Shown: positions 2,966 through 32,151, counted from the stretch's first letter. The stretch: 32,151 nucleotides of DNA from Spirochaetaceae bacterium (GCA_031279965.1 JAITHM010000014.1:1-32151), one strand, 5' to 3'. The notes: generated from the letters alone by a model not told the origin. Numbers and translations are program-made.

Positions 2966-2971
2966 ACGATT

Positions 2972-3781
2972 ATGAGTAAACGACGAGATGTGCTTTTTCT
3001 GGACTCAGGTGTAGGGGGGCTGCCTTACTGTAAACACTTTGCTAGACATAATCCTCAGTATGCGTTGTGTTATGTTGCAGACCGGGAACATTTCCCCTAT
3101 GGCGCAAAATCAAGATCTGCCCTTGTTGACCTTCTCTGCCGGCTTATTGAACAACTTCAACAAAAAATTGAACCTGCACTTGTTGTCCTTGCATGCAATA
3201 CGGCATCAATATCTGCATTGAATGAATTACGTATCCGGTTTCCAGAGATTGATTTTGTCGGCACGGTACCGGCTGTGCGGCCTGCTATTCTTGACAGCAG
3301 GAAAGGAAAAGTTGGAGTTCTTGGTACCGAGCGAACCATCACCGATGATTATATTTCAAAGCTTGCGCGGGAAACAGGACGTAATGCTGAAATTATCCGC
3401 CTTGCCGCGCCTTCACTTGTTGATTTTATTGAATATGAATTTATTGATGCGCCGCAGACAATCCGCAGTGAAACTGCGGTGCGCTGGACAAACCTTTTGC
3501 GGGAACAAGGGGTTGATGGCATTGTTCTTGGTTGCACGCATTTTCTTTTTTTACAGAATGAATTCCGCGCTGCCGCCGCGCCTGATATAACGGTTTATGA
3601 TTCTGTTGAAGGCGTATGCCATCGGGCAGAGCTCATTGTGCAGGGGAAACATCATGCCGCCGCCGTCCCGCCGCTTCCTCCCGTACTCATAGTAACTGGA
3701 GATACGCCTCTTGAGGATAGCTGGAGGCGTTGGGCGGAGACTTTTGGAATGAACGCCGTCTGCCTTAAGGAACTGTCATGA
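2972..3781 (+). CDS. murI: Glutamate racemase
   Basis: Motifs FLDSGVGGLPY, LACNTAS and LGCTHF (the two catalytic Cys regions) are present. The length of 269 aa is typical. Confidence 0.9.
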   Translation: MSKRRDVLFLDSGVGGLPYCKHFARHNPQYALCYVADREHFPYGAKSRSALVDLLCRLIEQLQQKIEPALVVLACNTASISALNELRIRFPEIDFVGTVPAVRPAILDSRKGKVGVLGTERTITDDYISKLARETGRNAEIIRLAAPSLVDFIEYEFIDAPQTIRSETAVRWTNLLREQGVDGIVLGCTHFLFLQNEFRAAAAPDITVYDSVEGVCHRAELIVQGKHHAAAVPPLPPVLIVTGDTPLEDSWRRWAETFGMNAVCLKELS

Positions 3782-4740: not shown

Positions 4741-4786
4741 CTTCTAAAAAGATTAACACAAGAAAGGGAGAGGGGGTATAGCGCTT

Positions 4787-6088: not shown

Positions 6089-6255
6089 GATGACATTTTT
6101 TCATGGGAAATGCAAAAATGTCAAGGCAATTGACAGGAGGATGCCCGCATTACTTTTTTATATTGCTCTTAGTTTACCGCTTTTCCTCAAAAATAAACGC
6201 AGAAGTTCTGGCTGGCTTTTCTAGCTTTGGTATTTTCAGTTAGACTTATACCATT

Positions 6256-7383
6256 ATGAAAAAAGCTGTTCTTATTCCCGATTCGTTTAAAGGGACGATG
6301 AGTTCCCGCGAAATTTGTGCAATTATGGCGGAGCGTATCCGCGCATATTACCCCCAGGCTGAAGTTGTTTCGATACCGGTTGCTGACGGCGGTGAAGGCA
6401 GTGTTGACGCCTTTCTTTCTGCAGTGAAAGGTGAAAAGATTCTGTTAACGGTTAAAGGTCCTTACCATGAAGATATTGAAGCGTTTTATGGCCTTATCGA
6501 CAACGGCAAGACTGCCATTATTGAAATGGCGGCCTGTGCGGGCCTCCCCCTTGTAGGCGCACGGCTTGATCCTTCAAAAACAACAACCTATGGGGTTGGA
6601 CAATTAATGCGCGATGCAGCGGCGCGGGGAGTGCGCAAAATAATTGTAGGGCTTGGCGGGAGCGCAACCAACGATTTTGGAGCTGGTGCAGCCGCTGCAG
6701 CTGGTGCGCTGTTTTTCGACAGTCAAGGGGTTGAATTTGTGCCTGTCGGCGCGACACTTTCCAAAATAGCCAAAATAGATACATCTGGGCTTCGCACAGT
6801 GCTGGACGGTATAGAAATTATTACCATGTGTGATATTGATAATCCGCTCTGCGGTGAAAACGGCGCTGCGTATGTTTTTGCACCGCAGAAAGGCGCTGAT
6901 CAACAGATGGTTGAAGTTCTTGATGCTGAACTTAAAGCGGCGGCGGCTGTGGCTAAAAAAGAACTTGGTATTGATGTTGCACTGCTTTCCGGCGCGGGTG
7001 CGGCAGGCGGCATGGGAGGCGGTATGGTTGCTTTTTTTAATTCAAAGCTGCAAATGGGTATTGAAACCGTGCTTGATACGGTTAATTTTGATACAGTGCT
7101 CCGCGGCGCGGATTATGTTTTTACCGGCGAAGGGAAAATTGATGGTCAAAGTTTGCGGGGCAAAGTTGTCATCGGTGTGGCCCGCCGCGCACAACACCAA
7201 AATGTTCCTGTCATTGCCATTGTGGGTGATATTGGTGATAATGTTGAAGGCGCATATAACGAAGGCGTGTGTGCGATTTTTAGCATTAACCGCATAAGCC
7301 AAAATTTTGAAGAAAACCGCAAACGTTGTAAGAATGACCTCAAACTTACCATTGATAATCTCCTTCGCTTTATGCGGAGATAA
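6256..7383 (+). CDS. glxK: Glycerate kinase
   Basis: The N-terminal IPDSFKGTMSS and VADGGEGSVDA motifs are present, with a C-terminal FTGEGKIDGQSLRGK. The length of 375 aa is typical. Confidence 0.9.
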   Translation: MKKAVLIPDSFKGTMSSREICAIMAERIRAYYPQAEVVSIPVADGGEGSVDAFLSAVKGEKILLTVKGPYHEDIEAFYGLIDNGKTAIIEMAACAGLPLVGARLDPSKTTTYGVGQLMRDAAARGVRKIIVGLGGSATNDFGAGAAAAAGALFFDSQGVEFVPVGATLSKIAKIDTSGLRTVLDGIEIITMCDIDNPLCGENGAAYVFAPQKGADQQMVEVLDAELKAAAAVAKKELGIDVALLSGAGAAGGMGGGMVAFFNSKLQMGIETVLDTVNFDTVLRGADYVFTGEGKIDGQSLRGKVVIGVARRAQHQNVPVIAIVGDIGDNVEGAYNEGVCAIFSINRISQNFEENRKRCKNDLKLTIDNLLRFMRR

Positions 7384-7512
7384 TTTGGGGAAGCGACGGT
7401 CTGCCCGCGGTAGACGTGCAGGGCAGCTGCCCGCCGCCAGTCCTTGCTTGACAGGCCGCCTGAAAAGCAAGGCGGCTCCGGCATCGTGGTAGTGCGGTTT
7501 AGATACCAGTAA

Positions 7513-7659
7513 GGTAGTGGACAGTGGGTAGTGGGTAGTGGGTAGTGGACAGTTTTTTGGCCGGTATATGTTAGCTAACGGCGTGTTCAGCGTTAGGTAA
7601 CGTATTTCGGCCAGAAGCCACTGCCCACTGCCCACTAATCACTGTTCACTATCCACTCA
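7513..7659. repeat. Two inverted arrays of about 6 heptamer repeats (core AGTGG / CCACT) flanking a 65-bp palindrome-rich spacer
   Basis: Left arm 7513-7552 reads GGTAGTG GACAGTG GGTAGTG GGTAGTG GGTAGTG GACAG and is followed by T6. Right arm 7618-7659 reads CCACTGC CCACTGC CCACTAA TCACTGT TCACTAT CCACTCA. The arms are imperfectly complementary. The spacer contains the perfect palindrome GTTAGCTAAC. Confidence 0.8.
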
Positions 7660-7668
7660 GACACGGGC

Positions 7669-7698
7669 TTGAATAAATAAAGAGGAATCGGTTAAGAT
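7669..7698 (+). promoter_or_regulatory. Candidate sigma70-type promoter for rplKAJL
   Basis: TTGAAT (7669-7674), an 18-nt spacer, then TAAGAT (7693-7698), about 65 nt upstream of the rplK ATG. The leader carries small hairpins (GGGC-agc-GCCC; CCGC-ctga-GCGG) that could be an L1-binding leader. That is not verifiable here. Confidence 0.35.
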
Positions 7699-7763
7699 AT
7701 CGTAATTCGTGGAAGGGCAGCGCCCGCAATTCCGCCTGAGCGGACTACCACAAAGGAGATTTC

Positions 7764-8195
7764 ATGGCAAAAAAGAAAATTACCGCAATTATCAAATTGC
7801 AGTGTCCGGCCGGCAAGGCGACTCCAGCGCCCCCTGTCGGTCCCGCGCTCGGACCGCATGGAGTAAGCGCTCCGCAGTTCGTGCAGCAATTTAACGACAA
7901 AACAAAGTCAATGGAGCCGGGACTTGTTATACCCGTTGTGCTTACCGTCTATCAGGATAAGTCGTTTACTTTTATTCTTAAAACTCCGCCGGCAGCGGTG
8001 CTTATAAAAAAAGCAACGGGTATCGAAAAAGGCTCCAAAGAGTCGCATAAAGTAAAGGTTGCCAAACTAAGCAAGGCAAAGCTTGAAGAAATTGCCAAAC
8101 TGAAAATGCCCGATCTTTCGGCAATCGATATTGAAGGTGCAAAAAGGATTATTGCCGGTACGGCGCGGTCGATGGGCGTGGAGGTGGAAAAATGA
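7764..8195 (+). CDS. rplK: 50S ribosomal protein L11
   Basis: [34 protein letters not shown] is the canonical L11 N-terminus. The RBS AAAGGAG lies upstream. Confidence 0.97.
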
Positions 8196-8866
8196 AGCAT
8201 GGCAAAAAATACCTCGAGGCGCTTAAAAAATATGATGCACAGGCGGTGCTTGATCTGAATTCTGCGGTGGAAACAGTCAAGAAGCTTGCCTTTGCCAAAT
8301 TTGACGAGACTGTTGATTTATCCGTTAAACTGAATCTTAAAAAAAGCCAATCGGTGCGCGATACTGTGGTACTTCCGCATCAGTTTAGGGGCGAAAAAAA
8401 GATACTGGTTTTCTGCAAGGCAGAAAAAGAAAAAGAAGCCCAGGAAGCCGGAGCGGCGTTTGTTGGCGCGGAAGATCTTATCGAAAAAGTAAGGGGCGGT
8501 TGGCTTGACTTTGACATTGCCGTTGCCACTCCCGATATGATGAAGGATGTTGGCAAGCTGGGGATGGTGCTGGGACGTAAGGGGCTTATGCCTAATCCCA
8601 AAACTGGCACGGTTACTTTCGACCTTAAAGGGGCGCTTGCCGAACTTAAAAAAGGCCGCACGGAATTCCGCGCTGATAAAACCGGCGTTATACACCTTGC
8701 TGTTGGCAAAGTTTCTATGGACGGCGCTGCCATTGCCGAAAACGCCTCGACAGTGCTTGCCGAAATTAAACGCAAACGCCCAGCCGATGCAAAAGGTGAT
8801 TTTGTGCAGACAATTTCGCTCGCGTCCACAATGGGGCCGGGCGTGTGGGTAAAAGTTGAAGCTTAG
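8192..8866 (+). CDS. rplA: 50S ribosomal protein L1
   Basis: Shows the L1 pattern [28 protein letters not shown] ... [18 protein letters not shown]. The start forms an ATGA overlap with rplK. Confidence 0.97.
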
Positions 8867-8878
8867 GAGGAGAAATAG

Positions 8879-9418
8879 ATGGCTATCGTAGCAAAGAAAA
8901 TACAGGATGTAAAAACAGCATCGATTAACGAGCTTAAAGAGGCGTTCAATGGTGCAGAGGATTTTATTTTTACTGATTACCGGGGGCTTACCGTTGAGCA
9001 GATTACTGGATTGCGCAAAAACCTTCGGGCAAAGGCGGCATCATATAAAGTTGTAAAAAACAACTTTGCCCGCATTGCTTTTGAACAGCTTTCCCTGCCC
9101 GATGTGTCGGCGTATCTAACGGGACCTACGGCTATAGCACTTGTTACCCAGGACTCAAACGAAATCGCCAAAATATTGATTGACGCGGCGAAAGAGACGC
9201 CGGTGCTCAAAGTAAAAGGCGCTATCGTAAGCGGTTCAGTGTATAACGCTCAGCAGATCGAGGCGTTTTCAAAGCTTCCTGGCCGGCTGGAACTTATCTC
9301 TATGCTTATGTCGGTTATGCAGGGGCCCGCACGAAATCTTGCCGGCTGCCTGAACGATGTGCCCGCACGGCTTGTGCGTACGGTCAAGGCTATTGCTGAC
9401 AAAAAAGGCGCTGTGTAA
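8879..9418 (+). CDS. rplJ: 50S ribosomal protein L10
   Basis: Contains FIFTDYRGLTVEQITGLRKNLR, typical of L10. The RBS TAGGAGGAG sits 12 nt after the rplA stop. Confidence 0.95.
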   Translation: MAIVAKKIQDVKTASINELKEAFNGAEDFIFTDYRGLTVEQITGLRKNLRAKAASYKVVKNNFARIAFEQLSLPDVSAYLTGPTAIALVTQDSNEIAKILIDAAKETPVLKVKGAIVSGSVYNAQQIEAFSKLPGRLELISMLMSVMQGPARNLAGCLNDVPARLVRTVKAIADKKGAV

Positions 9419-9480
9419 AATGTGGAAACAATCCGTCAGGCTTCGTGCTGCTGTCCTGTCGGGTTTAGGGCGTATGCCCC

Positions 9481-9515
9481 GCGTATCCTTATGGATACGC
9501 ATATTTTAATTTTTT
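9481..9515 (+). terminator. Strong hairpin plus T-rich tail between rplJ and rplL (attenuator, processing or stabilising element)
   Basis: GCGTATCC-ttat-GGATACGC is a perfect 8-bp stem with a 4-nt loop (9481-9500). It is followed by ATATTTTAATTTTTT, immediately before the rplL RBS. Confidence 0.4.
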
Positions 9516-14177: not shown

Positions 14178-15368
14178 ATGAGCATGAACGAGACCCCTGC
14201 GTCAGAGCGTGTTCATATTGGTTTTTTTGGCAGACGAAATGCGGGAAAATCAAGCCTTGTAAATGCCGTTACCGGGCAAGATCTTGTTATTGTTTCGGAA
14301 ATAAAAGGCACAACGACTGATCCTGTGCAAAAGGCAATGGAGCTTTTGCCGCTTGGCCCTGTGGTGGTTATTGATACGCCCGGTATTGATGACGAGGGAG
14401 TTCTGGGCGGACTGCGGGTTCGCAAGGCCCGCCAGACGCTCAATAAAGTTGATATCGCTGTGCTCGTTATTGACGCACTGGAAGGCAAAAAGCCTGTTGA
14501 CGATGAACTTATCAGTCTTTTTTCCGAAAAAAATGTGCCCTATATTGTTGTCTGGAACAAGTGCGACCTTCTTTCAGATGGCCGGCCGCGGCTGGAAACA
14601 GAGCACGAAATTGCCGTAAGCGCCCAGTATAAAACAAATATTGGCGCGCTCAAAGAAAAAATCGCGCACTCTGTCCGGCCTGGCGAGCTTACAGGGCGCA
14701 TTGTTGGAGACTTGCTTGCACCCGGCGATACGGTCGTGCTTGTTGTGCCTATTGATAAGGCCGCGCCTAAAGGCAGGCTGATTCTGCCCCAACAGCAAAC
14801 GATACGCGATATACTTGAGGCAGACGCTGCCGCACTTGTGGTAAAAGAGCATGAATTGCGCAATGTGCTTGCAAATCTTGTCCGGCCGCCGCGCATGGTT
14901 ATTACCGACAGCCAGGTTTTTGCGAAAGTTTCTGCTGATACACCGCCTGATATTCCTCTTACATCATTTTCAATTCTTTTTGCCCGCTATAAAGGTTTTC
15001 TTGTACAGGCCGTGAATGGGGTGCGAGCGCTTGACAGTCTTGAAGACGGCGATACGGTACTGGTATGCGAAGGCTGCACACATCACCGCCAGTGTGACGA
15101 TATTGGCACGGTCAAACTTCCCCGCTGGATACGCGCTTATACCGGACGGCGCATTGAGTTTGCTTTTACTTCCGGGGGCGAATTCCCGGAAGACCTTAGC
15201 CCTTACCGGATGGTAATCCACTGCGGCGCATGCATGATAGGCTGCCGCGAGATAAACTGGCGGCAGCGGCATGCAGCACAGCAGCAAATTCCGTTTACCA
15301 ACTATGGTATTACCATTGCTCATTTACAAGGGATACTTGAACGGGCTACCGCGCTGTTTCCCTTGTAA
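14178..15368 (+). CDS. hydF: [FeFe]-hydrogenase H-cluster maturation GTPase HydF
   Basis: GTPase motifs are G1 GRRNAGKSS, G3 DTPG and G4 NKCD. The C-terminal cluster-binding signature is C-x-H (GCTHH), about 45 residues, then HCxxC (IHCGAC). Confidence 0.8.
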   Translation: MSMNETPASERVHIGFFGRRNAGKSSLVNAVTGQDLVIVSEIKGTTTDPVQKAMELLPLGPVVVIDTPGIDDEGVLGGLRVRKARQTLNKVDIAVLVIDALEGKKPVDDELISLFSEKNVPYIVVWNKCDLLSDGRPRLETEHEIAVSAQYKTNIGALKEKIAHSVRPGELTGRIVGDLLAPGDTVVLVVPIDKAAPKGRLILPQQQTIRDILEADAAALVVKEHELRNVLANLVRPPRMVITDSQVFAKVSADTPPDIPLTSFSILFARYKGFLVQAVNGVRALDSLEDGDTVLVCEGCTHHRQCDDIGTVKLPRWIRAYTGRRIEFAFTSGGEFPEDLSPYRMVIHCGACMIGCREINWRQRHAAQQQIPFTNYGITIAHLQGILERATALFPL

Positions 15369-21539: not shown

Positions 21540-22848
21540 AAACATCATCGGGCAAAGCGCTGTTGAAGCGCTTAAGCGTGATTTTACTCAGGGGCAGCTT
21601 CCTCCGTCAATTCTTTTTTGGGGGCCGGAAGCGTCGGCGAAAGGTACGGCGGCGCTGGAACTTGCCCGCGCTCTTTCGTGCGAGGCTGAGGGCGCGTGGA
21701 ATTGTTCGTGCCCGTCCTGCATCCTTCATCGTACACTTTCTCATCCTGATGTGCTTTTGCTGGGGCCCCGGTCTTTTCAGGCTGAAATCGCGTCGGCGGC
21801 GCCTGTTTTTTTAGCCGATTCTGAGAATAACGCTGCCCGTTATCTATTTTTGCGCGCTGTTCGCAAGCTTCTTGCCCGCTTTTCGCCCGTGCTCTGGGAA
21901 GGCGATGCTAAAATTTCCAAGCTGAATAAGCACTTGGAAACAATTTCTGATTGTCTTGAAGAACTTGCCGCGAACAAAAAGCTTGAAAAACTCTGCGAAA
22001 AAATTATTGGTGCTTGTACTGAGCTTGAATCTGAGGGGGTAGCCCTGATGATACCGGCAAGTCAGATACGGCACGGGTCGTACTGGCTGCGCATGGCGCC
22101 CAACGGTAACCGCAAAGTGATGATTATTGAAAATGCCGACAAAATGAACGATACGGCGCGGAATTCACTGCTTAAAATTCTTGAAGAACCGCCTGAACGG
22201 GCGGCAATCATTCTAACGACGGCGCGTCCTAAAGCTTTGCTTCCCACAATACTTTCGCGTTTGCGTCCCTATTATTTTACCCGCCGGAGCGCCGGTGACG
22301 AAGCGGCCGTACTCAAACGAATTTTCCGGCAGGAGCATGAATTTCCGCGGGAATCGCTGCGCCGTGATGAAAACATGATTCAAAGCTTTCAAAACAACTT
22401 TCTGCCTGTACCGGCAAAAAGCCTTTACCCGCCGGCGGCGTATTTTTGGTCGTCGCTTGCGGCGCGGGCAATTTCCCGTGCACGGGAAGAACGGAAAGCA
22501 GATCCGGCAGGTACGCTTGTTGCCATTGGAAAGTATTGCGCCCCGCGTGCCGGTGCCGGGGGCCTGCCCGCCCATGACATGAGCGTTAAGGCAATAAGCG
22601 CCATCATCATGAAGGCGGCGGCGCAGTTTGAGCCGCGTTCTCTTTTTTCGCAGTTCATCGGTCTGCTCTACGAACTGCTTGGCGAGGCGCTTAATGGAGC
22701 CGCCGGTGCGGCAGAGCTTCGCTGCCGTGATGACTTTCGTCATTTTGCCGAAGAAGCGAGAACAGCTGTTGAGGTTTATCATCAAACTCCTGTCCTGGCG
22801 CTTGAATGTCTTATCGAACAACTCACCCGCGCTTATTCGCTGCTATGA
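21532..22848 (+). CDS. holB: DNA polymerase III delta-prime subunit, with an extended C-terminus
   Basis: IIGQSAVEALKRDFTQGQLPPSILFWGPEASAKGTAALELARAL is followed by the Zn-module CSCPSC. VMIIENADKMNDTARNSLLKILEEPP and ILSRL are also present. The ATG at 21532 overlaps the cvpA stop. Confidence 0.8.
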   Translation: MFENIIGQSAVEALKRDFTQGQLPPSILFWGPEASAKGTAALELARALSCEAEGAWNCSCPSCILHRTLSHPDVLLLGPRSFQAEIASAAPVFLADSENNAARYLFLRAVRKLLARFSPVLWEGDAKISKLNKHLETISDCLEELAANKKLEKLCEKIIGACTELESEGVALMIPASQIRHGSYWLRMAPNGNRKVMIIENADKMNDTARNSLLKILEEPPERAAIILTTARPKALLPTILSRLRPYYFTRRSAGDEAAVLKRIFRQEHEFPRESLRRDENMIQSFQNNFLPVPAKSLYPPAAYFWSSLAARAISRAREERKADPAGTLVAIGKYCAPRAGAGGLPAHDMSVKAISAIIMKAAAQFEPRSLFSQFIGLLYELLGEALNGAAGAAELRCRDDFRHFAEEARTAVEVYHQTPVLALECLIEQLTRAYSLL

Positions 22849-22874
22849 CTGGAACGCGCCGTAAAAAAAAGCGC

Positions 22875-22903
22875 TTGACATTGGAGAGATTTTGTCGTAT
22901 ACT
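22875..22903 (+). promoter_or_regulatory. Near-consensus sigma70 promoter of the giant-lipoprotein operon
   Basis: TTGACA (22875-22880), an exact 17-nt spacer, then TATACT (22898-22903). A 5'-UTR hairpin AGGAAAA-ggtt-TTTTCCT lies at 22913-22930. The RBS AAGGAG is at 22944-22949. Confidence 0.6.
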
Positions 22904-22957
22904 TGCGTATTCAGGAAAAGGTTTTTTCCTTTAAGTTGATTTTAAGGAGAGTTTGTT

Positions 22958-25900
22958 ATGAAGCGACGAATGATGATAGGCGTAGGAATACTTGCGGTGT
23001 TGATAGGTGCCGGTGTTTTTTCATGCCATGGGGCTTCTTTTTACGACGGGTGGGGTGATAAAATTGATGATCAGACGAAAAGTCCTTTTCCTGGCGAAGT
23101 TCCCTTGCTGGAGAGTCTGACTATTGTTCCGCAGAAGGGCGGCGATCCTCTGCCGCTTACGCCGGTATTTGTACCGCAGACGAACATGTATCAGTCGTAT
23201 TCGTCGCTGGCCGAGATGGGCTTATACGAAATAAAAGCTACGGTTAAAGAGGGGTCAAACTATAAGATATCGTACGTGAACGGGCCGTTATTTACGCCGC
23301 TTACGGTAACGTATGTTATTGTTACGGTAACGAACGATGACATTAAAAACAGCTATGTTGTCGCGTTTAATGACGACAATATGCCCTATGCCAAGCTTAA
23401 ATTGCTTGGTTTTTCCGAAGGCGAGATAACCACTCCGGCGGAAGGTTTTAACTCATCAATTAAAGATTATAATGTAACGGTTCCCTATGGTACCAAGTCG
23501 GTTATGGCGGCGGGGGAGCCTGAGCAGGAGAGCGGGCAGGTTATTTACAGCGAAGCGCCGCTGGATTTAACAAAACGGCTGACGATGGTGGTGCAGGTTG
23601 TCGCGCCTGGCTACAATGTTGGTTCGTATACGGTAACATTTTTAGAGGCAACTCCCCAGGCTTCGTTTTTAGAGTATTTGGAGCTGTCTGTTGGGTCGTT
23701 GGAGCCTGCGTTTAGCCGCGACAAGACGGAAGGGTATACGCTTACGCTTCCGGCGTCCACGCCGCTTACGCTTAAAGGGCACATAGCCCCGGGCGGCGAA
23801 GTGACCTACAGCCAGGGGATAGCGAAGCCGAACAATGCACAGTATATACCGAATCCCAAGGGCGGATCGGATTTATTAACGATAACAGCGCATAACGGTG
23901 TAGGGTATGCGCCCAAGGAATATGTATTCGAGCTGGTTTTGGATTCAACCACGCCGTATGCGTCGTTGTCGTCGTTGTCGGCAACGATAGATCCGCCGTC
24001 AGACTATTTAACGTGGTACCGGCGGGACGGCGGTTCGCGGGTGCCGGAGGTAAGCGGCTCCGGCGTGTTTAGTCCCGATGTGCTTAACTACGAACTGTAT
24101 TTAGAGAGGGGTCAGCCGAGCGCGGGAACCTTAACCTTTGCTGCGGCTGCCGGTGCGGGAATAGCCAATGCAACGATCACCTATGAATATTTGGGGCCTG
24201 CCAACGAGGATAGCGAGGCGGTATTGAACTTTCGTTTTGACGAGCGGATACCAATGCGTGTGCGGATAAGTGCGCAGGGGTACCTGCCGGTTACCTATCA
24301 TGTTGTTATAAACAGCGCGGCCGACTATAAGCCGGTTGCCTTGTTAAAAGGGTTAACGCTGGTTGGCGCGAATCTGGATCCTGCGTGGGATCCGAACGAT
24401 CCTGCACAGGATTATTATCAGGCGGTAGGGCTGCGGGGGAACGCGCTTATTGTGCAGGGCGTTCCAGAGAAAGATTTTTTCCATGTTACCTACAAAGCGG
24501 CAAAGTCGATAGCGGCGCTGGAAGACAGTGTTGCAATAACGGTACGGGTTGATGGCGGGGAAACCTACCAGCCTATGGAGTATGTAATCCTGGTTGCCGT
24601 GCGGCAGAGGATGAAGCCGCTGCTTTCGCTGTTAAAGGCAGGCGAGAAAGATATAGAGCTTATAGAGGGGCAGTTTGCCTACACGGTAGCGATAGAAGAT
24701 GTGGCGCAGGTAAAAATACCGTATGAGTGGGAGTATGCCACGCCGCTGGATATTGATACGGCTGTCCATTCGTTAAACGGCCTAACGTGGACGGCGCCGA
24801 ACGACGCGCCGCCCCAGGCGGAGATTACGGTGGCGGAAGGGAATACGGCGTTGATGCAGATAAAAATTACCTGCAAAGACAAGACCGAGGCGATCTACCA
24901 TATCTACATGACGCGGGACGAAAATAACGACGAGACCCTCGTTCTTAAGGATATAGAGAGGAATGGTAAAGGCCTAGAAGAATTTAGTCAGAATAAAAGA
25001 AACTATACGGTCTATGTAGACAGTCTTAGTCAGCAAACAATTGAGGGAATACTGTCTGATGAGATGATGAGTAGCCGCCCGGGAATAAAGGTAACATACC
25101 GGTTGAGTGGAGAAATTCTCTGGAACCCTGAACCTGCGAAGTTTAGACTGCAAGCAGAGGCACCAAGAAACACGCAAACAGTAAACATACGTGTTTCGCT
25201 TGGCGGTGCAAAGAATGTCTACTCGGTAACGTACATCTGGGCGGAAAAACTGTTTAAGATAACTGAGGTGACGTATACAGCGAGTATGGGGAAGGTTGAG
25301 ATAGAACCTCTCTCTGCAACAACGACGGGGATACCGGGAGGGGCGCCTTTTATGGTAAGGCAGGTGCCGAATAATGGTTCTAAGATAGGAATAGGGCAAA
25401 CTCCCCAAGATGGCGGACTGCCTGTGATTAGGAGTAGTGATAACGGCGTTGAACTGGATACTGCTATTGACGGATCTGTGCCGGCATCTCCTGTGCCTGC
25501 AATATTTTACGTAAAAGAAATGCCCCCGAAGGATGTAAAATTAGAGTTGTTTTTTGTCCAGGTAGATAGTACTGATAATAAACTTGATATGCTTGATATT
25601 ATAGATAAAGATGGGAATAAATCATGTATGACAACAGCGTTTGTTCGTACAAATAGTAGTGTAAAGGCATTCTTGACGAACAATCAAGGGGTAACGGTCA
25701 AAGGGAAAGCTCCTTTAAGCAGCAATATTTATTACAAGATAATTAAAGTTGGTGCGGCAGCAACTCCGCTGAAGGCCAGTCTTACTGCGACAAGAGAGTT
25801 CAACTTTGATATCGATATGCCAATCCCAATGAGTGTGGTGGTTATATTGGAAGTGCATCCAAATAACGCAGGTTTAGGGGTTACGACCTATATACTTGTT

Positions 25901-26605
25901 ATAAAAAAAATCGATGTGGTGACTGAATTTGGCTTTTCTGCATCAGAAGAATTCTATTCAGTAGGAGCAAGCGGCTGGTTTAAGATAGAAGTTTGGGGAG
26001 CACAGGGCGGGGAGGCTACAAATGTATGGAATGAGTTTCAGAGTGATAAACCTGGCGCAAAAGGTGGTTATTCTTATGGTGATATTTATATTTCTGAAGG
26101 CACAGAACTGTATGTTCGTGTAGGCGGGAGGGGAGAATCGGCGAAAGAGGCTTATAGTTCTTATTCGGATGCTGTCGGCGGCTGGAATGGCGGCGGAGAT
26201 GGAGATGTTGGTAGTTTAGAGGGCGGTGGTGGCGGTGGCGGTAGGTCTGAGGTGCTCATGGGCTCGAATAAACGGCGTATTATTGTAGCTGGCGGTGGCT
26301 CAGGCGGCGTACAGAGTGGTAAGTATGGTGCTGGCGGCGGTGGTAATGAGGGCGAGAGAGAGGGCGTGGCTGGAAGTGACGGGAGCGGTTCAGTTAATGT
26401 TGATGGTAATGGGTCTAAGGGAACTGGTGGTTCAACGTATGGCGGCGGCGGCGGCGGCGGCGGATACAAAGGTGGGAGTAAAAACAGTGGTGGTTCCGCT
26501 TTTATCGAGACGAACAATGGGTTTTTCAGTAACATTGGCGGAAGCCGCGGCACGAGAGAAGGCGATGGTTATGTAAAAATTACCTGGCTTGGTATACAGA
26601 GATAA
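22958..26605 (+). CDS. Giant predicted surface lipoprotein: about 8 cadherin-like beta-sandwich repeats plus a C-terminal ALK/LTK-type glycine-rich domain
   Basis: The signal peptide ends in a lipobox-like GAGVFS-C. Repeated modules of about 90 aa resemble LEYLELSVGSLEPAFSRDKTEGYTLTLP...YVFELV. The C-terminal roughly 230 aa (nt 25910-26605) read FGFSASEEFYSVGASGWFKIEVWGAQGG...GAKGGYSYGDIYISEGTELYVRVGGRG...GGWNGGGDG...GGGGGGGRSEV...RIIVAGGGSGG...GGGGGGGYKGG. Confidence 0.9.
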   Translation: MKRRMMIGVGILAVLIGAGVFSCHGASFYDGWGDKIDDQTKSPFPGEVPLLESLTIVPQKGGDPLPLTPVFVPQTNMYQSYSSLAEMGLYEIKATVKEGSNYKISYVNGPLFTPLTVTYVIVTVTNDDIKNSYVVAFNDDNMPYAKLKLLGFSEGEITTPAEGFNSSIKDYNVTVPYGTKSVMAAGEPEQESGQVIYSEAPLDLTKRLTMVVQVVAPGYNVGSYTVTFLEATPQASFLEYLELSVGSLEPAFSRDKTEGYTLTLPASTPLTLKGHIAPGGEVTYSQGIAKPNNAQYIPNPKGGSDLLTITAHNGVGYAPKEYVFELVLDSTTPYASLSSLSATIDPPSDYLTWYRRDGGSRVPEVSGSGVFSPDVLNYELYLERGQPSAGTLTFAAAAGAGIANATITYEYLGPANEDSEAVLNFRFDERIPMRVRISAQGYLPVTYHVVINSAADYKPVALLKGLTLVGANLDPAWDPNDPAQDYYQAVGLRGNALIVQGVPEKDFFHVTYKAAKSIAALEDSVAITVRVDGGETYQPMEYVILVAVRQRMKPLLSLLKAGEKDIELIEGQFAYTVAIEDVAQVKIPYEWEYATPLDIDTAVHSLNGLTWTAPNDAPPQAEITVAEGNTALMQIKITCKDKTEAIYHIYMTRDENNDETLVLKDIERNGKGLEEFSQNKRNYTVYVDSLSQQTIEGILSDEMMSSRPGIKVTYRLSGEILWNPEPAKFRLQAEAPRNTQTVNIRVSLGGAKNVYSVTYIWAEKLFKITEVTYTASMGKVEIEPLSATTTGIPGGAPFMVRQVPNNGSKIGIGQTPQDGGLPVIRSSDNGVELDTAIDGSVPASPVPAIFYVKEMPPKDVKLELFFVQVDSTDNKLDMLDIIDKDGNKSCMTTAFVRTNSSVKAFLTNNQGVTVKGKAPLSSNIYYKIIKVGAAATPLKASLTATREFNFDIDMPIPMSVVVILEVHPNNAGLGVTTYILVIKKIDVVTEFGFSASEEFYSVGASGWFKIEVWGAQGGEATNVWNEFQSDKPGAKGGYSYGDIYISEGTELYVRVGGRGESAKEAYSSYSDAVGGWNGGGDGDVGSLEGGGGGGGRSEVLMGSNKRRIIVAGGGSGGVQSGKYGAGGGGNEGEREGVAGSDGSGSVNVDGNGSKGTGGSTYGGGGGGGGYKGGSKNSGGSAFIETNNGFFSNIGGSRGTREGDGYVKITWLGIQR

Positions 26606-26628
26606 TTTAATTTAGGAGAAAGGAAAAA

Positions 26629-29600
26629 ATGATGAAAAAGAACGGCAAAAAAATTAACAAGGGTTATGTGGCATGTTTGTGCGGAGCACTGGTGCTTATG
26701 GCGGTAGTGGGCGCCTGTCATGCGGCGGGCTATTTTGATGGCTACGGCGACAATACGGGCGGTAACGGAGGGGCAGACTCCACCACGGTTCCCTACCTCG
26801 ACAGCCTGGAATTGCAGGCAACAGGGGGCGGGATTATCGCGTTTGATAAACCGTTTGATCCGGGTACCAATATGTATTCTGTTAGATATGCAAGCGTCCC
26901 CAACCCGTCATATACGGTCGTTGCGACATCGTTAAATTTTAATGTAACGTATGTAACAGGAACTGTGCTTTCTCCGGCAACGGATACATACGCCATTGTG
27001 TCGGTGGAAAACGGCAAGCTTAAAAACGACTATATTATTTCGGTAAACAAGGATGGGCTTCCGGAAGCTAAACTAAAAAGCCTTACTTTTTCAGACGGTT
27101 ATTTTGTTTCTCCAAGCTGGAGCTTTGACCCGGATATAACTGGCTATGAAATTGAAGTGCCGGAAGGCATTGATACCATACTTGCTTCCGGTGTGCCGGA
27201 GGTTGCTGCGGGCAAGGTAGTCTACAGCGAAGCTCCTGTTTCTGTAGGCAGTGGCAAGCCGCTTATAATTCAGGTTGCCGCTCCCGGACATAATATTGGC
27301 GTGTATACGATATTGGTACAGCGTGCGAACCCGATGCCGTCGTTCCTCGATGGTCTTGAACTTTCGGCAGGTTCGCTGTCGCCGAAATTTTCCAGAAATA
27401 TTACAAATTATACAATAACGTTACATTCATCTACGCCGCTTACCGTGCTGGGGCGTGTTGCCTATGGAACGGTAAGTTATAGCCAGGGTACGGCGCTTGC
27501 AAACGGCGGCCAGCAGATTAATACGCCGTCGGGAGTAGTAACGCTTACGGCAAATTATGGAATTGCCAATATCAAAGTGGTTTCAGGCGATAAGGAGCGC
27601 TATGTCCGGCGTGCCCACACGCCCAAAGACTATCTATTCACTATTGTAATAGATGATACTGCCAAGTATACCAATTTGGACGAAATTAAGGTAAACGGTG
27701 TAAGCGGTGCGCGCGCGCAGGATGAGGCTTGGATACTGTATCAGCGTAACGGAGGGAACCGTACCGGAAAAGAAGGCTTTGAGGCAGATGTGCTTACCTA
27801 CGAGCTGTATTTTACATCGTATTATCCGGGGGAAAAGGCCGCAGATATAACAGCGTATGCCTTGTCTGTAGAAGGTTTTCTAAGTTCTGCAAATAATTTG
27901 CGCTGGAAACTTGAATATAATAAGGGCAATCCGATGTATAATCCTACGGTTGCTGCGCTGTTCCAGACTGACGACGACAAGACAAGGTATTCCAACTTTA
28001 TTGATCCGCAAATACCCATGCAGATTACTGTTAAGGAAAGAGATGGTATAAACGAAGGAGCTCTGCCTCGTGTGTACCATATATTTATATCGTATAACAA
28101 TGCCAACTGGCCCTATGCGGTGCTTACCGATATTTTGGTAAACGGCGAGGGCACAGGTGCCAATACGCTGCAAAATACGGATAGCCCGGGGCAAGGCTTT
28201 CTGTCGCTTAATTTTAACTATTCGCTTGGCGTCCGGCGAGGAGCCAACCTTATCCTTAAAGGCATTCCCGAAAAGGAAAGCGTTATTGTCGACGAGCAAG
28301 TTACTGATAGTGATGGAAACACAACTGGAGAGATGGTTACCCATGCGGTACGCGGTTACGATATCCGCTACGATCCGGAAAACAGTTTTGCTAATGTTCA
28401 GAACGGAGGCACGGTAAAAATATGGGTAAACGGAGGCATTGGCTATAGAGAAGCTGAATACACAATAGAAATTGAAGTTTTTGAACCGATGAATCCAGAA
28501 CTGCAAACGATTAGCGTCCGGGGCAATGAATTGGGAGTAATCACTAAAAACTACCGGTATGTCGAGGTTCTGGAGTACGAAGGCGAAGAATTTATGCAGC
28601 TTCCGTTTGAATGGGCGCCGGTTGTTCCCGAAGGCATTAAAACGATCAGATATGCCTACGAGGTGGTAGCCGGAAGCACCCATTGGATTGATGACCCGGA
28701 GCACGATGGTTTTGACGCGGGATCAAGCTTTGTTGCGGAAAAGGGAAAGGCGTATATAGTCTATATAGAAGTAACCTGCAACGACGGGGAACAGGTTACC
28801 TACACGGTCCAGCTTAAACGCCAAGGACAAACGGACAAGTCGATAGTATTAACAATGATTCAGTTGAACAATGTAGATATTACGGGATTTAATAAAGATA
28901 TTCAAAGCTACGTGATAAACATCACCAATTCAAATGATAACACGCTTAAAGGAATTATTGATCCTAATGTAGGCGTGGTTCTGTATTCGTATGACGAGGT
29001 TAACTGGCAGAACACTGATCCTATAGAATCTTTGCTCCCCGGGGAAACAAGAACGATTATAATCCGCGCGGATGCTTCGGGAAAATACAATGATTATACG
29101 GTAACGCTTTCTCGTTCAACGGCCTTGTATAAGGTTGATGCGGTTTCAGTATCAAAAGATGATGCCGGTAATGAGCTGGGAACTTATCAGCTCAGCCCCA
29201 GTACATCCATTACTACTGGTGTTGTTGCCGGTACTTTGATGTATCTCGTAGTAACACCTGTCAATAATCAATATAAAATTGCTACAAAACCTGTGGTACA
29301 GATAACCGGCACCTCGCAGAGAGAGTCAGTTGTTGGGGTGGTTCCTGGTGGTTCTAACCAAAGTAGTTTTAGCTTTTCTATGCCGGCGGGCGATGTAACT
29401 ATTACACTTTATTTTGAAAATATTCTAAGTCAGAGCAATCAATTGGTTGTTTTGACTGCCAGTGATGGAAGTAAAATGCCGATTATGGAAGTTTTTGATG
29501 GCGCTAAAAGCGACAAAACATGGTATGTAGGAACGAAAAATACAAAAGTAGATTTTTCTATTACGGGCCCTGTGGGAGCAGAAATTTCATACAAAGAGTT

Positions 29601-30624
29601 GTTCTCTGATTATACGGCAGGCCTTTCTGAAAATCCAATACCTCTTAATAAGGACGACGAGTTTAGTCTGGCATCGCTTTATGCTGGGTTAATGAGGCCT
29701 ATTCTCATAACTGTAAGACCGGATAATACGGATCTTGAGATCCGTGAGTATCTGGTGATTGTAATGCGGCTGCCAAACAATGGCGTGTCGAATTTTGCTT
29801 TTTCAGGGAGTACGGTGAACTGGGTTCCTCCAATTCCTGGCTGGTATAAGGTTGAATTATGGGGTGGAGCGGGAGGACAAGCTTGGGCTGATACAGATTT
29901 GACGGCCAATCACAACCGATGGAATAATGATACACAAGGCGGGGGAGGGTACACCTGTGTTGAAGGTGCTTTTAAAGAAAATTATTTCTTCAAGATCAAA
30001 GTAGGGGGACGTGGTCAAAAGGCTGCGGGGAGAAAAGAAGATGATAAGACGTTTAGTGTCACCTTCCCGGATGGTGGAAAAGGGGGTAAGAACAGGCACT
30101 TCGTTGATCAGTATCAAGGTGCTTGCGGTGGCGGGGGTTCCTTTTTATTCTTTGGCTACAATGGGGGAAATGATTTTGAAGCCGTTGCTGTTGCCGGCGG
30201 TGGTGGCGGCGGGTCGTCTAAAGGAAAGGATGGGCCTACAAATGGCGGTGCTGGAGGTGGTGGAAATCCCTGGCGAAGTGCTGGTGAATATGCTTTGAAT
30301 AGACAACAAGCGGATCAGAAGGATGATACTTCAGGTTTTACTCAAACAACTCATACCGGTGATGCTAACAAAACCGCTAATTTTGTTGGAAGGGACGGGC
30401 ATGAGAAAGGTCAAGGCGGCGGCGGCGGCGGATACTATGTTGGAAGTAATTGGGGGCAAGGCGGCCAGGGCTGGGCAAGAATGCCTGCGGATCTTGGCGG
30501 CAGATCGCAATATGATGGTCCTGTTTTTACAAAGGTCAGCGGCAAAAGAAACCAGAAGCTAAAAGCAAGTGGTGAAGTAAGAATTACCTGGATGGGCGCG
30601 GTAGACCCGGCGGCTACTCCGTAA
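26629..30624 (+). CDS. Paralogous giant predicted surface lipoprotein with the same architecture
   Basis: The signal peptide carries LMAVVGA-C. The protein is collinear with the upstream gene (for example SFLDGLELSAGSLSPKFSRNITNYTITL). The C-terminal roughly 285 aa (nt 29771-30624) read FAFSGSTVNWVPPIPGWYKVELWGGAGG...GGGGYTCVEGAFKENYFFKIKVGGRG...GACGGGGSFLFF...AVAVAGGGGGGS...GQGGGGGGYYVG. The gene starts 23 nt after gene 1 and has its own RBS. Confidence 0.9.
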   Translation: MMKKNGKKINKGYVACLCGALVLMAVVGACHAAGYFDGYGDNTGGNGGADSTTVPYLDSLELQATGGGIIAFDKPFDPGTNMYSVRYASVPNPSYTVVATSLNFNVTYVTGTVLSPATDTYAIVSVENGKLKNDYIISVNKDGLPEAKLKSLTFSDGYFVSPSWSFDPDITGYEIEVPEGIDTILASGVPEVAAGKVVYSEAPVSVGSGKPLIIQVAAPGHNIGVYTILVQRANPMPSFLDGLELSAGSLSPKFSRNITNYTITLHSSTPLTVLGRVAYGTVSYSQGTALANGGQQINTPSGVVTLTANYGIANIKVVSGDKERYVRRAHTPKDYLFTIVIDDTAKYTNLDEIKVNGVSGARAQDEAWILYQRNGGNRTGKEGFEADVLTYELYFTSYYPGEKAADITAYALSVEGFLSSANNLRWKLEYNKGNPMYNPTVAALFQTDDDKTRYSNFIDPQIPMQITVKERDGINEGALPRVYHIFISYNNANWPYAVLTDILVNGEGTGANTLQNTDSPGQGFLSLNFNYSLGVRRGANLILKGIPEKESVIVDEQVTDSDGNTTGEMVTHAVRGYDIRYDPENSFANVQNGGTVKIWVNGGIGYREAEYTIEIEVFEPMNPELQTISVRGNELGVITKNYRYVEVLEYEGEEFMQLPFEWAPVVPEGIKTIRYAYEVVAGSTHWIDDPEHDGFDAGSSFVAEKGKAYIVYIEVTCNDGEQVTYTVQLKRQGQTDKSIVLTMIQLNNVDITGFNKDIQSYVINITNSNDNTLKGIIDPNVGVVLYSYDEVNWQNTDPIESLLPGETRTIIIRADASGKYNDYTVTLSRSTALYKVDAVSVSKDDAGNELGTYQLSPSTSITTGVVAGTLMYLVVTPVNNQYKIATKPVVQITGTSQRESVVGVVPGGSNQSSFSFSMPAGDVTITLYFENILSQSNQLVVLTASDGSKMPIMEVFDGAKSDKTWYVGTKNTKVDFSITGPVGAEISYKELFSDYTAGLSENPIPLNKDDEFSLASLYAGLMRPILITVRPDNTDLEIREYLVIVMRLPNNGVSNFAFSGSTVNWVPPIPGWYKVELWGGAGGQAWADTDLTANHNRWNNDTQGGGGYTCVEGAFKENYFFKIKVGGRGQKAAGRKEDDKTFSVTFPDGGKGGKNRHFVDQYQGACGGGGSFLFFGYNGGNDFEAVAVAGGGGGGSSKGKDGPTNGGAGGGGNPWRSAGEYALNRQQADQKDDTSGFTQTTHTGDANKTANFVGRDGHEKGQGGGGGGYYVGSNWGQGGQGWARMPADLGGRSQYDGPVFTKVSGKRNQKLKASGEVRITWMGAVDPAATP

Positions 30625-30647
30625 GCATCTCTGCGCCAAACACAAAA

Positions 30648-30676
30648 CCGCAAAGCCTCCGCTTTGCGGTTTTTTT
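30648..30676 (+). terminator. Rho-independent terminator of the giant-gene operon
   Basis: CCGCAAAGC-ctcc-GCTTTGCGG is a perfect 9-bp stem. A T7 run follows. The structure begins 24 nt after the stop codon. Confidence 0.85.
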
Positions 30677-30690
30677 ATGCGCCCGCCCGC

Positions 30691-30892
30691 CTTCGCTTGT
30701 GGGGCGTTCAATGTTTCTGTCCCAGCAGCCGCTCCTGCGCCCCCCACCGCCCACACTTCACCGGAGGAACGCGCTCAACGTTTCGCACGCTTTCGCTTGG
30801 TGGGGCGTTCGCCTTTTCTGTCCCAGTAGCCGCTTCTGCGCCCCACACCGTGCTAACTTCCCCGGAGGGACGCGCTCAACGTTTCGCGCGCC
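30691..30892 (+). repeat. Two tandem GC-rich units of about 100 bp (short hairpin module plus linker with GCGCTCAACGTTTCGC)
   Basis: Unit 1 (30691-30790) and unit 2 (30791-30892) align end to end. The shared pattern is TTCGCTTG(G)TGGGGCGTTC....TTTCTGTCCCAG.AGCCGCT.CTGCGCCCC...ACTTC.CCGGAGG.ACGCGCTCAACGTTTCGC.CGC. Confidence 0.85.
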
Positions 30893-30907
30893 AGTGCTTG
30901 GTGGGGT

Positions 30908-31160
30908 GGGGGCGCGTGGAAATTCGTGCGGGCAAAACGCTTGGCGGCTAGAGCACAAGCCACGCCAAAGCGTGCGTCAGCAAAGCCCCCGGCCAACTAG
31001 TTTTGTACGCGCGAATTTCCACGCGCCCCGTTTCGGGAAAGCCGTGCGGGCAAAACGTTTGGCGGCTAGAGCACAAGCCACGCCAAAGCGTGCGTCCGCA
31101 AAGTCCCGGCCAACTAGTTTTGTACGCGCGAATTTCCACGCGCCCCGTTTCGGGAAAGCC
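30908..31160 (+). repeat. Palindrome-bounded unit of about 122 bp (30908-31029) and its 118-bp tandem duplication (units 30926-31043 and 31044-31160)
   Basis: The arms GGGGGCGCGTGGAAATTCG (30908-30926) and CGAATTTCCACGCGCCCC (31012-31029) are perfect inverted repeats. The segment GTGCGGGCAAAACG..TTGGCGGCTAGAGCACAAGCCACGCCAAAGCGTGCGTC.GCAAAG..CCCGGCCAACTAGTTTTGTACGCGCGAATTTCCACGCGCCCCGTTTCGGGAAAGCC occurs twice in tandem. Confidence 0.85.
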
Positions 31161-31235
31161 TTTTGTAATTGCAAAGCAAATCGCTTGACTTATTACCGGC
31201 ATTAGACGATACTTAAAACGTCAACTGAATCAAGA

Positions 31236-31847
31236 TCAGCTGACTCCGCCCCCTGTGAGTGGAATAGAACTGTTGGGGTTAGCAGAAGTGGCTGCTGCGT
31301 TAGTGGCGTTTTGTTCGCTATCACTGGAGGGATGGCCGTCTCCCCCTGATTGGTCTATAATTTCAATCTCTGAGATGTCATAAATTGCATTGTTTTCTAA
31401 TATTTTAATAACGTCTTTTACAAAAGTTTTTTTCCTTTTTTTAAAGAATGTAACTGAAAGATACCTTCGCTTTTTTTTGCTTATGTGTTCAATATAAATA
31501 TATGTATGACCTTCTTCTGTGTGTTTACCATAAAGCACACTGTATGTGCTAAAATGTTTTATTTTTCGTATCTCAAATGACGGCGTTTGTACTATGTCTG
31601 GTATACTCATAAAGTCTTTTTCTGTTATGGCAATTTGTCCTTGTTGTTTTTCTGCCACAAAATTACCGTGTCTGTCATAAATATGTTTAATTCTCTCTAC
31701 GTTTGTTGTGTGGGTATATCCATTAGAGTCAAGTAGAATAGTAAAACTATTTTTTGGAATGTCATTTATGCCTTTCTTGTGATTAACTGCTTGTGCCCAT
31801 GCGTTTTGAATAAATCTTTTATATTCTCGTCTTTGTTCTTCACTCAT
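31236..31847 (-). CDS. AT-rich orphan protein (203 aa), possible nuclease/toxin-like domain, cassette-borne
   Basis: This is the only long ORF in the AT-rich segment. It has a clean ATG start, no signal peptide, a basic patch KKKRRYLSVTFFKKRKK, and a low-complexity Ser/Asn/Gly tail. I cannot assign a family with confidence. Confidence 0.65.
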   Translation of the reverse strand: MSEEQRREYKRFIQNAWAQAVNHKKGINDIPKNSFTILLDSNGYTHTTNVERIKHIYDRHGNFVAEKQQGQIAITEKDFMSIPDIVQTPSFEIRKIKHFSTYSVLYGKHTEEGHTYIYIEHISKKKRRYLSVTFFKKRKKTFVKDVIKILENNAIYDISEIEIIDQSGGDGHPSSDSEQNATNAAATSANPNSSIPLTGGGVS

Positions 31848-31892
31848 ACTTCAATTATCGGTGCGGTGACAGCTTGCGGTAAGTGCTTACGA

Positions 31893-32075
31893 CCCCGCCG
31901 CCCACACTTCGCCGGAGGAACGCGCTCAACGTTTCGCGCGCCATTTCTTGGTGGGGGCGCGTGGAAATTCGCGGGGGCAAAACGTTTGGCGGCTAGAGTT
32001 CCGGCCACGCCAAAGCGTGCGTCAGCAAAGTCCCCGGCCAACTAGTTTTGTACGCGCGAATTTCCACGCGCCCCC
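31893..32075 (+). repeat. Third, direct-orientation copy of the linker plus palindromic unit
   Basis: It is near-identical and collinear with 30845-31029. It contains CCCACACTTCGCCGGAGGAACGCGCTCAACGTTTCGCGCGCC, then the 21-bp arms GGGGGCGCGTGGAAATTCGCG (31953-31973) and CGCGAATTTCCACGCGCCCCC (32055-32075). Confidence 0.85.
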
Positions 32076-32151
32076 TCACGGAAAAGCAACACGCTTGCCG
32101 GTAAGGGCTTTGGCGGTGTAGTGTAAGGCATGGGCAGAAACAGCAGCTACA

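Follow-up and report, generated by a model that had tools for sequence, protein, structure and literature searches.

Two giant tandem genes, here called A and B, lie near the 3' end of a 32,151-nucleotide (nt) stretch of DNA from a Spirochaetaceae bacterium (GCA_031279965.1 JAITHM010000014.1:1-32151; hereafter the 'window', with all coordinates counted from its first letter). Both are predicted to encode lipoproteins in which a lipobox cysteine is followed by a 'stalk' of nine beta-sandwich modules and then, at the C-terminus, by a glycine-rich 'head' that we assign, by profile and predicted-structure comparison, to the family of the ligand-binding domain of the receptors ALK and LTK. A reading made previously from the DNA alone (the original prediction) had described two collinear paralogues of 1215 and 1331 amino acids (aa) lying 23 nt apart, and the coordinates of the open reading frames (ORFs) agree with this exactly. 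The component parts are as follows (AF2, AlphaFold2; TG, TNF-like plus glycine-rich):

22958–26605, + strand: gene A, ORF of 1215 aa, with a lipoprotein signal, a stalk of nine modules and a glycine-rich head (Pfam, AF2)
22958–23026, + strand: predicted signal peptide and lipobox of A, residues 1–23, GVFS/C23 (lipobox rule)
23099–25909, + strand: stalk of A, modules M1–M9, residues 48–984 (AF2 strands, hhalign, collinearity, Foldseek)
25250–25570, + strand: module M8 of A, a small beta domain of different fold
25910–26602, + strand: head of A, ALK/LTK-type TG domain, residues 985–1215 (PF12810, AF2, Foldseek)
26441–26463, + strand: perfect (GGC)7.7 tract within the head of A, encoding the GGGGGGGG motif (Tandem Repeats Finder)
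26629–30624, + strand: gene B, ORF of 1331 aa; architecture as in A (BLASTP against A, Pfam)
26629–26718, + strand: predicted signal peptide and lipobox of B, residues 1–30, VVGA/C30 (lipobox rule)
26788–29769, + strand: stalk of B, modules M1–M9, residues 54–1047, collinear with that of A
29770–30621, + strand: head of B, ALK/LTK-type TG domain, residues 1048–1331 (PF12810), with longer loops than in A

Working backwards from the C-terminus, the heads (231 aa in A, 284 aa in B) each match PF12810 (ALK_LTK_GRD) over almost the entire model: A with 64.9 bits across residues 1005–1210 (profile positions 7–242 of 243) and B with 50.1 bits across residues 1070–1320 (positions 7–241 of 243), against a gathering cut-off of 24.5 bits; the precomputed annotation of both proteins already includes this family. 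The ordered series of glycine motifs described for this region in the original prediction is present and collinear between the two proteins, with the insertions and deletions that distinguish the heads of A and B located between the conserved motifs. The match also takes in beta-strand motifs that are not glycine-rich, GW[FY]K[IV]E[VL]WG and V.ITW, within a region whose overall composition is 24–29% Gly.

Single-sequence phmmer searches of the PDB returned no match. We then aligned 32 complete heads, cut from the phmmer relatives of A, with those of A and B; the profile built from these 34 sequences, when run against 177,635 PDB sequences, finds nine matches, exclusively ALK, LTK and their Caenorhabditis elegans homologue SCD-2 (E 6.6e-17 to 1.6e-14). 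Sixteen columns of the alignment are invariant, fifteen of them Gly and one Tyr, and the alignment shows no set of catalytic-type residues that is conserved. The AF2 model of the head of A (residues 976–1215, built with the same alignment) has a predicted local distance difference test score (pLDDT) of 85.9 and a predicted template-modelling score (pTM) of 0.86, with beta strands at both ends; the glycine segments (model residues ~81–150) reach block pLDDT values of 76–96 and are assigned as neither helix nor strand by DSSP, which is how polyglycine-II (PGII) helices would appear in that program; only residues 156–171 fall below a pLDDT of 50. Searched against the PDB with Foldseek, the model gives ALK/LTK TG domains at each of the first 21 ranks (E 2.6e-9 to 1.5e-6; TM-score on the query, TMq, 0.43–0.55), followed by a tail-tip chain of mycobacteriophage Bxb1 (9d93_Qa, E 1.1e-4), the sole structural match outside ALK/LTK, and beyond this by nothing with E < 0.1. 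Both the PF12810-type head and the structural comparison proposed for it in the original prediction are thus upheld, and we assign the head, on the strength of its profiles and model, as a homologue of the ligand-binding TG supradomain of ALK/LTK.

By combining the hidden Markov model (HMM) alignment with the polyproline-II (PPII) segments published for ALK (PMC13243192), the head motifs can be placed onto individual PGII helices of ALK: WGAQGG on 740–747, VGGRG on 776–782, EGGGGGGG on 816–824 and IVAGGGSGG on 841–848, in a numbering that derives from the 673–986 construct and is approximate. It is from this motif-by-motif correspondence with the ALK PPII helices that a PGII lattice is proposed, in which the invariant glycines would build a rigid scaffold of beta-sandwich and polyglycine-II helices. 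In-frame slippage at the (GGC)7.7 tract could only alter the length of a poly-Gly run, i.e. of one predicted PGII helix.

Moving down from the head, the full-length AF2 model of mature A is all-beta (pLDDT 77.8) and comprises nine beta-sandwich modules of 90–128 aa, with approximate bounds at residues 48–144, 145–234, 235–332, 333–460, 461–552, 553–659, 660–764, 765–871 and 872–984, leading into the head; a short linker joins the lipobox to the stalk. Ten-residue blocks of the stalk mostly score pLDDT ~70–90, each module contains ~5–9 DSSP strands, in keeping with the roughly seven-stranded sandwich of PF12733, and the pTM of 0.48 for mature A is as expected of a beaded rod. In Foldseek comparisons the stalk matches arrays of Ig, cadherin and FN3 domains, including those of the Aureispira grappling-hook protein GhpA (9flp, E 1e-17), DSCAM, contactins and titin, and also protocadherin, an RTX-adhesin extender and the S-layer proteins EA1 and SbsB.

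The original prediction had seen in the stalk a long series of ~90-aa modules sharing an L..L motif and belonging to the cadherin-like family PF12733. A modular series is indeed present; the literal motif L..L.x..G.L.P.F, however, occurs just once in each protein. Its family assignment likewise stands only in part: direct matches to PF12733 reach 22.3 bits in A and 17.3 bits in B against a gathering score of 24.2, with M2 the only individual module to match (18.1 bits in A, 22.5 bits in B). Support comes instead from profiles and from relatives. Collinear relatives pass the PF12733 threshold (P0019, 79.7; P0021, 82.1; P0027, 74.7; P0004, 28.8 bits), and 16 of the 17 proteins recovered by a profile search with modules 1–5 are annotated as PF12733. 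The relatedness of the modules was measured by hhalign comparison of per-module family profiles, in place of an iterated self-trained HMM that was set aside as circular. Here, M1–M5 are mostly interrelated at a probability of at least 90%, and M7 is linked at 91% or above to M2, M4, M6 and M9; against the segments that pass PF12733, M2 scores 94%, M3 87%, M6 93%, M7 99% and M9 97%, with M1, M4 and M5 connecting to them through M2. M8 is unrelated to every other profile (0–1%); in B it has a weak match to Flg_new_2 (InlB B-repeat), as it does in the relative P0003. By this transitive evidence we assign eight of the nine modules (M1–M7 and M9) as PF12733-type cadherin-like domains and M8 as a different small beta domain. 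As the module boundaries are collinear throughout the family, the stalk is a fixed nine-part structure rather than a freely expanding repeat.

At their N-termini both proteins carry a basic region and a hydrophobic core followed by the lipobox cysteine; in A the sequence is MKRRMMIGVGILAVLIGAGVFS up to C23 (ending ...AGVFS/C23) and in B it ends ...LVLMAVVGA/C30. A regular expression of the PROSITE-type lipobox rule, requiring Cys at position 15–35, finds a lipobox in both A and B and in 10 of the 12 relatives from the family, as against 3 of the 147 other proteins retrieved, which are mostly glycine-rich-domain hits; the lipid anchor is thus a trait of this family and not of the head domain. 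The signal peptides ending in Cys that had been claimed for both proteins are borne out by this rule, and we take A and B to carry predicted Sec/lipoprotein signals with a conserved lipobox cysteine. The outcomes named beforehand as fatal to the original prediction did not materialise: the PF12810 match is significant, the glycine-rich region is confidently folded in the model, and a lipobox is present.

The two genes are also joined by their transcription signals, the positions of which are:

22875–22903, + strand: sigma-70-type promoter TTGACA-17-TATACT, 11 of 12 consensus matches, the top site in 22500–31300
22944–22950, + strand: ribosome-binding site of A, AAGGAGA, read directly, 7 nt 5' of the ATG at 22958
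26614–26619, + strand: ribosome-binding site of B, AGGAGA, in the 23-nt gap, nine bases 5' of the ATG
30644–30677, + strand: intrinsic terminator, a 13-bp hairpin (30644–30673) followed by a T7 tract

The promoter sits in the 109-nt gap 3' of a holB-like gene (ending at 22848), and the terminator hairpin starts twenty bases past the stop codon of B, with a folding energy of −24.3 kcal/mol (z = −4.9; none of 200 shuffles equally stable); a simple terminator scanner missed this hairpin, which was identified from sequence and folding. The same scanner found no terminator-like site in the gap between A and B (26606–26628), such that the pair reads as a single transcription unit. A shared promoter and strong terminator had been proposed at the outset, and we concur: A and B are predicted to form one operon, running from promoter to terminator. 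The surrounding genes are ordinary chromosomal ones (murI, rsgA, L1/L10, phoH, ybeY, hydF, prfB, murG, cvpA and holB) and the GC content of the pair falls inside the range of the window; with such housekeeping flanks and unremarkable GC, we reject a phage or mobile-element origin for the pair. An Rfam scan of the window gave no match. At 90% identity, clusters with the housekeeping proteins of the window include no named relative, and NCBIfam matches of the neighbouring genes supply no lineage-specific marker.

BLASTP aligns A with B over the full length of both proteins (E 7e-118; 1164 columns, 28% identical), and conservation varies along the alignment: 37–52% identity in the membrane-proximal modules M1–M3, 19–29% in M4–M9, and 36% at aligned positions in the head, where 83 gap columns stand against 216 aligned positions. 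At the DNA level we found neither repeats longer than 35 nt nor inverted repeats between the two genes, and on these grounds recent gene conversion or cassette-type variation is rejected. NCBIfam holds no model for A or B.

Full-length relatives are few. When A was searched exhaustively with phmmer through 1.84 billion representative sequences, 1059 matched at E <= 1e-3, mostly through the head; word-indexed searches with full A and with the B stalk returned the query only, and are uninformative as to true absence. Every named full-length relative comes from a metagenome-assembled genome (MAG) labelled Spirochaetaceae, and is called at NCBI either 'cadherin-like beta sandwich domain-containing protein' or hypothetical; the three contigs that were traced (L035, L036 and L037) all derive from Joint Genome Institute (JGI) sample 3300042609. 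In this analysis it is the labels of such relatives that point to a spirochaete as the source. These relatives (P0003 and P0005, both on JGI contig Ga0466722_043378; P0004, MDR2510512.1; P0019, MDR2489937.1; and P0027) share with A and B the lipobox, the collinear modules M1–M7 and a PF12810 head, and differ from them in sequence (only 24–46% identity) and in their upstream neighbours; P0019, at 1648 aa, has extra stalk modules. Contig Ga0466722_043378 carries P0005, an A-type gene truncated where the contig ends, and, 24 nt further on, the B-type gene P0003, whose product of 1317 aa scores 511 bits to B versus 406 to A. Both P0005 and P0004 are nearer to A than to B, and they seem to be two parts of a single A-type gene divided between contigs. 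From the presence of this second A-then-B tandem it follows that the duplication predates the split of these organisms, with both copies and their order having been kept. The suggestion that the family is undergoing diversification is weakened by these observations: the copies are old (28–32% identity), long DNA repeats are missing, and an orthologous tandem exists elsewhere. What does vary is the length of the head loops and, in more distant relatives, the whole type of head: P0009 and P0020 have the lipobox and a collinear stalk (reaching M7 in P0009 but ending near M5 in P0020) topped by PF21722 (Gly_rich_2) instead of PF12810, indicating an exchange of heads while the stalk was conserved.

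We searched 185,579 species-representative genomes and found no close orthologue, only relatives of the head domain in other phyla; JGI metagenome contigs, scanned twice using patterns specific to the stalk, gave no relative. At 266–1669 the contig of P0004 (L036) also encodes a protein whose TP_0584_C domain takes its name from a protein of Treponema pallidum; this neighbour lends indirect support to a treponeme-like source for the family. In a Bacilli MAG (L003, JAEDJT010000001.1) a giant gene at 8001–12902 matches A residues 51–1103, spanning both stalk and head. Under translation table 11 a single ORF reaches 300 aa or more, the one of 3154 aa at 24–9488, and it ends inside the match to A; this genome may use genetic code 4.

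The head domain itself is spread far more widely. A genome scan for GW[FY]K[IV]E[VL]W finds it for the most part in MAGs of gut Bacilli/Tenericutes, in Muribaculaceae, and in one MAG each from the Pseudomonadales and the Spirochaetaceae. In a sample of 50 other bacterial head proteins, all PF12810-positive (P0014–P0114), the domains found alongside are type IV pilin N-methylation (8 of 50), Listeria-Bacteroides repeats (7) and bacterial surface Ig-like domains (6), together with Big_2, BspA-type leucine-rich repeats, TIG and PKD, with a Mfa-like fimbrillin and a Cadherin-like domain in one case each; the pilin and fimbrillin partners suggest, by association, that the head also sits on pili. 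Many of the bacterial proteins have several heads in tandem. In BFVD, 108 viral models match the head at E <= 1e-3 (TMq up to 0.73), including virion structural proteins, a putative short tail fibre and a tail-collar protein from cyanophages and Caulobacter phages. Many of the phage matches are auto-named 'receptor protein-tyrosine kinase' in UniProt, clearly an annotation carried over from the ALK domain.

Phage polyglycine-rich domains have been described as host-binding fibre tips, in which a conserved glycine bundle supports variable loops (bioRxiv 10.1101/2023.11.25.568672; 10.64898/2026.07.24.740622; PMC13252515), and a review of PPII-bundle domains lists about half a dozen polyglycine-II classes, none of them a bacterial surface protein (bioRxiv 10.1101/2023.11.25.568672). 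Our literature search found no paper characterising bacterial PF12810 proteins, nothing on cadherin-like or glycine-rich lipoproteins of Treponema, no description of a PF12810 head as an adhesive domain, and no tested function for any bacterial or viral protein with this head. PF12810 and PF12733 are both catalogued in Pfam already.

Comparison with known systems helps to define what the pair is, and what it is not. With the TG supradomain of ALK/LTK (PDB 7NX1, 7MZY, 7LRZ, 7N00; SCD-2, 7LIR) the heads share homology over the whole domain, motif order and predicted fold, and they probably share its role as an extracellular, membrane-distal binding module. They differ in being shorter (231–284 aa versus ~310), in their distance from ALK/LTK (19–24% identity, TM ~0.5) and, for A, in having no Cys and hence no disulfides. 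A and B are without the kinase, transmembrane helix, EGF, MAM and LDLa domains, no ALKAL-like ligand is encoded near the pair, and membrane anchoring would be through a lipid on the N-terminus, the other end of the chain; since Pfam shows nothing beyond stalk and head, and each protein ends at the head, an ALK-type receptor kinase is rejected. The polyglycine-rich receptor-binding domains of phages (S16/T-even gp38, 6F45; Bxb1, 9D93) present a similar picture of a glycine scaffold at the tip of a long fibre, with conserved Gly motifs separated by variable loops; A and B, however, are cellular lipoproteins without flanking phage genes. Membership of the gp38 family (PF05268) is rejected, neither head matching it and 6F45 lying outside the top 50 Foldseek matches (M3 in the stalk of B gives the sole trace, at E 0.029), and the relationship to gp38 is one of analogy. 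Fibrillar adhesins (RTX extenders, GhpA, PF12733 surface proteins) share the general plan of an anchor, a stalk of beta-sandwich repeats and a non-repeat terminal head; A and B differ from these in anchoring by a lipobox Cys, rather than by LPXTG, a type I secretion (T1SS/RTX), autotransporter or type IX secretion (T9SS) route, and in having modules that are positionally orthologous across the family. The pair is in this sense a lineage-specific combination of lipid anchor, fixed cadherin-like stalk and TG head, kept as a tandem.

Putting sequence, models and analogy side by side, we consider it rather probable that A and B are old paralogous lipid-anchored fibrillar binding proteins of a gut-type spirochaete. 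Following export, the N-terminal Cys would be acylated; the extended stalk, which we estimate at ~35–40 nm (~4 nm per module), would keep the head off the membrane, most likely on the cell surface; and the head would bind a partner molecule, a role suggested by the phage tail-tip/tail-fibre and bacterial surface-domain settings in which it is found elsewhere. Specificity may then reside in the loops between the glycine motifs, the length and sequence of which differ between A and B and among orthologues, following the logic of phage gp38 adhesins and of cytokine binding by ALK; two paralogues made from one transcript would display two different specificities.

Several points weigh against this proposal. 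The stalk falls short of the PF12733 gathering score in both proteins, as given above, and the TM-score of the head model to ALK is only ~0.5. No conserved partner gene that might suggest a pathway is found near the pair or its relatives. Lastly, many lipoproteins of Treponema are periplasmic and not surface-exposed, a matter that sequence cannot decide. A rival view places A and B in the periplasm as structural lipoproteins, with the lipid inserted either in the inner membrane or in the outer membrane's inner leaflet, where they would serve as spacers or bind peptidoglycan or the flagellar sheath. We think this unlikely, if still worth serious consideration: the lipobox is present with nothing in the sequence to specify surface export, treponemes do retain many lipoproteins in the periplasm, and the locus lies among housekeeping genes such as murG, cvpA and holB; yet an upright rod of nine modules plus a head is long for a periplasm, and the same head occurs elsewhere on pilins, fimbrillins, phage fibres and Ig-like surface proteins.

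A surface coat or lattice, with the Ig-like arrays lying flat in an S-layer-like tiling and the heads associating with themselves (those of A and B might even pair), strikes us as distinctly improbable. Matches of the stalk to EA1 and SbsB (E ~1e-9), the co-transcription and co-conservation of the paralogues, and the presence of ALK/LTK TG domains in receptor dimers (as judged from PDB entry titles) would all fit such an arrangement; the S-layer matches, though, reflect generic similarity between Ig arrays and rank under fibre and adhesion molecules, Pfam shows no SLH or other lattice-anchoring domain, and the pTM of 0.48 does not point to a compactly packed assembly. The chance that the C-terminus is simply low-complexity or disordered, and the PF12810 match an artefact of composition, we regard as negligible. 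Its glycine content, the empty phmmer search of the PDB and the swamping of word-based searches could each be read in this way, but the idea is contradicted by the reciprocal profile and structure results: the match spans the whole model, beta-strand motifs included, the 34-head profile retrieves no Gly-rich PDB proteins other than ALK, LTK and SCD-2, and the head is modelled with confidence and led by ALK/LTK in Foldseek.

As lipid-anchored fibrillar binding proteins, A and B would be candidate surface or attachment factors for the organism, with a fold homologous to the ligand-binding domain of a human oncogene receptor placed at the end of a long spirochaete lipoprotein stalk. A large proportion of over 1000 representative prokaryotic proteins contain the domain, as do more than 100 viral models. 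The structure and ligand of one bacterial head would give function to a large family of 'glycine-rich proteins', test loop variation as the determinant of specificity (cf. phage gp38), and inform the origin of the ALK/LTK ectodomain. A bolder reading, which we hold to be improbable, would make the cytokine-binding module of ALK/LTK a late offshoot of a very large prokaryotic and phage family of polyglycine-II binding heads, and the spirochaete pair a natural two-specificity display system for such a scaffold, with its rigid glycine lattice and variable loops carried on a lipid-anchored stalk of 35–40 nm. By analogy with the recognition of ALKAL by ALK, the targets of the pair might in that case be small helical proteins, or molecules on the surface of a host or partner; were the offshoot idea true, the bacterial heads would offer a tractable model for ligand binding by this fold, and a clue to the origin of the domain in metazoan receptors through its acquisition from bacteria or phages.

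Some further features of the window deserve mention. Just 3' of the terminator is a repeat-rich intergenic region (30660–31180 and 31850–32090) with direct repeats of 101 nt and 138 nt, and a 30-nt element, GTTTTGTACGCGCGAATTTCCACGCGCCCC, in five copies over both strands, the copies forming inverted pairs of 30–44 bp that resemble miniature inverted-repeat transposable elements (MITEs) or repetitive extragenic palindromic (REP) sequences; the core GTTTTGTACGCGCGAATTTCCACGCGCCCC element has no other occurrence in the window. A CRISPR array is rejected for this region, the intervening sequences being themselves repeated. Between the two repeat blocks, on the − strand at 31236–31847, is an ORF of 203 aa that contains a PBECR3 (phage-Barnase-EndoU-ColicinE5/D-RelE-like nuclease) domain and may be a toxin-like or mobile-element remnant. 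At the other end of the window, a 393-aa ORF (694–1875, + strand), whose product has a hydrophobic stretch at its N-terminus and a run of GGGGMQQQQQQMGGGG, lies between two TPR proteins and has no Pfam or NCBIfam match. A WbsX-family glycosyltransferase (4787–6088, − strand, opposite to A and B; E 5e-122) occupies the lowest-GC kilobase of the window (0.34, versus 0.40–0.59 elsewhere), which suggests a laterally acquired surface-glycan gene. Finally, a complete HydF, the [FeFe]-hydrogenase maturation GTPase, is encoded at 14178–15368 (+ strand) and points to an anaerobic, H2-metabolising organism, consistent with a gut spirochaete.

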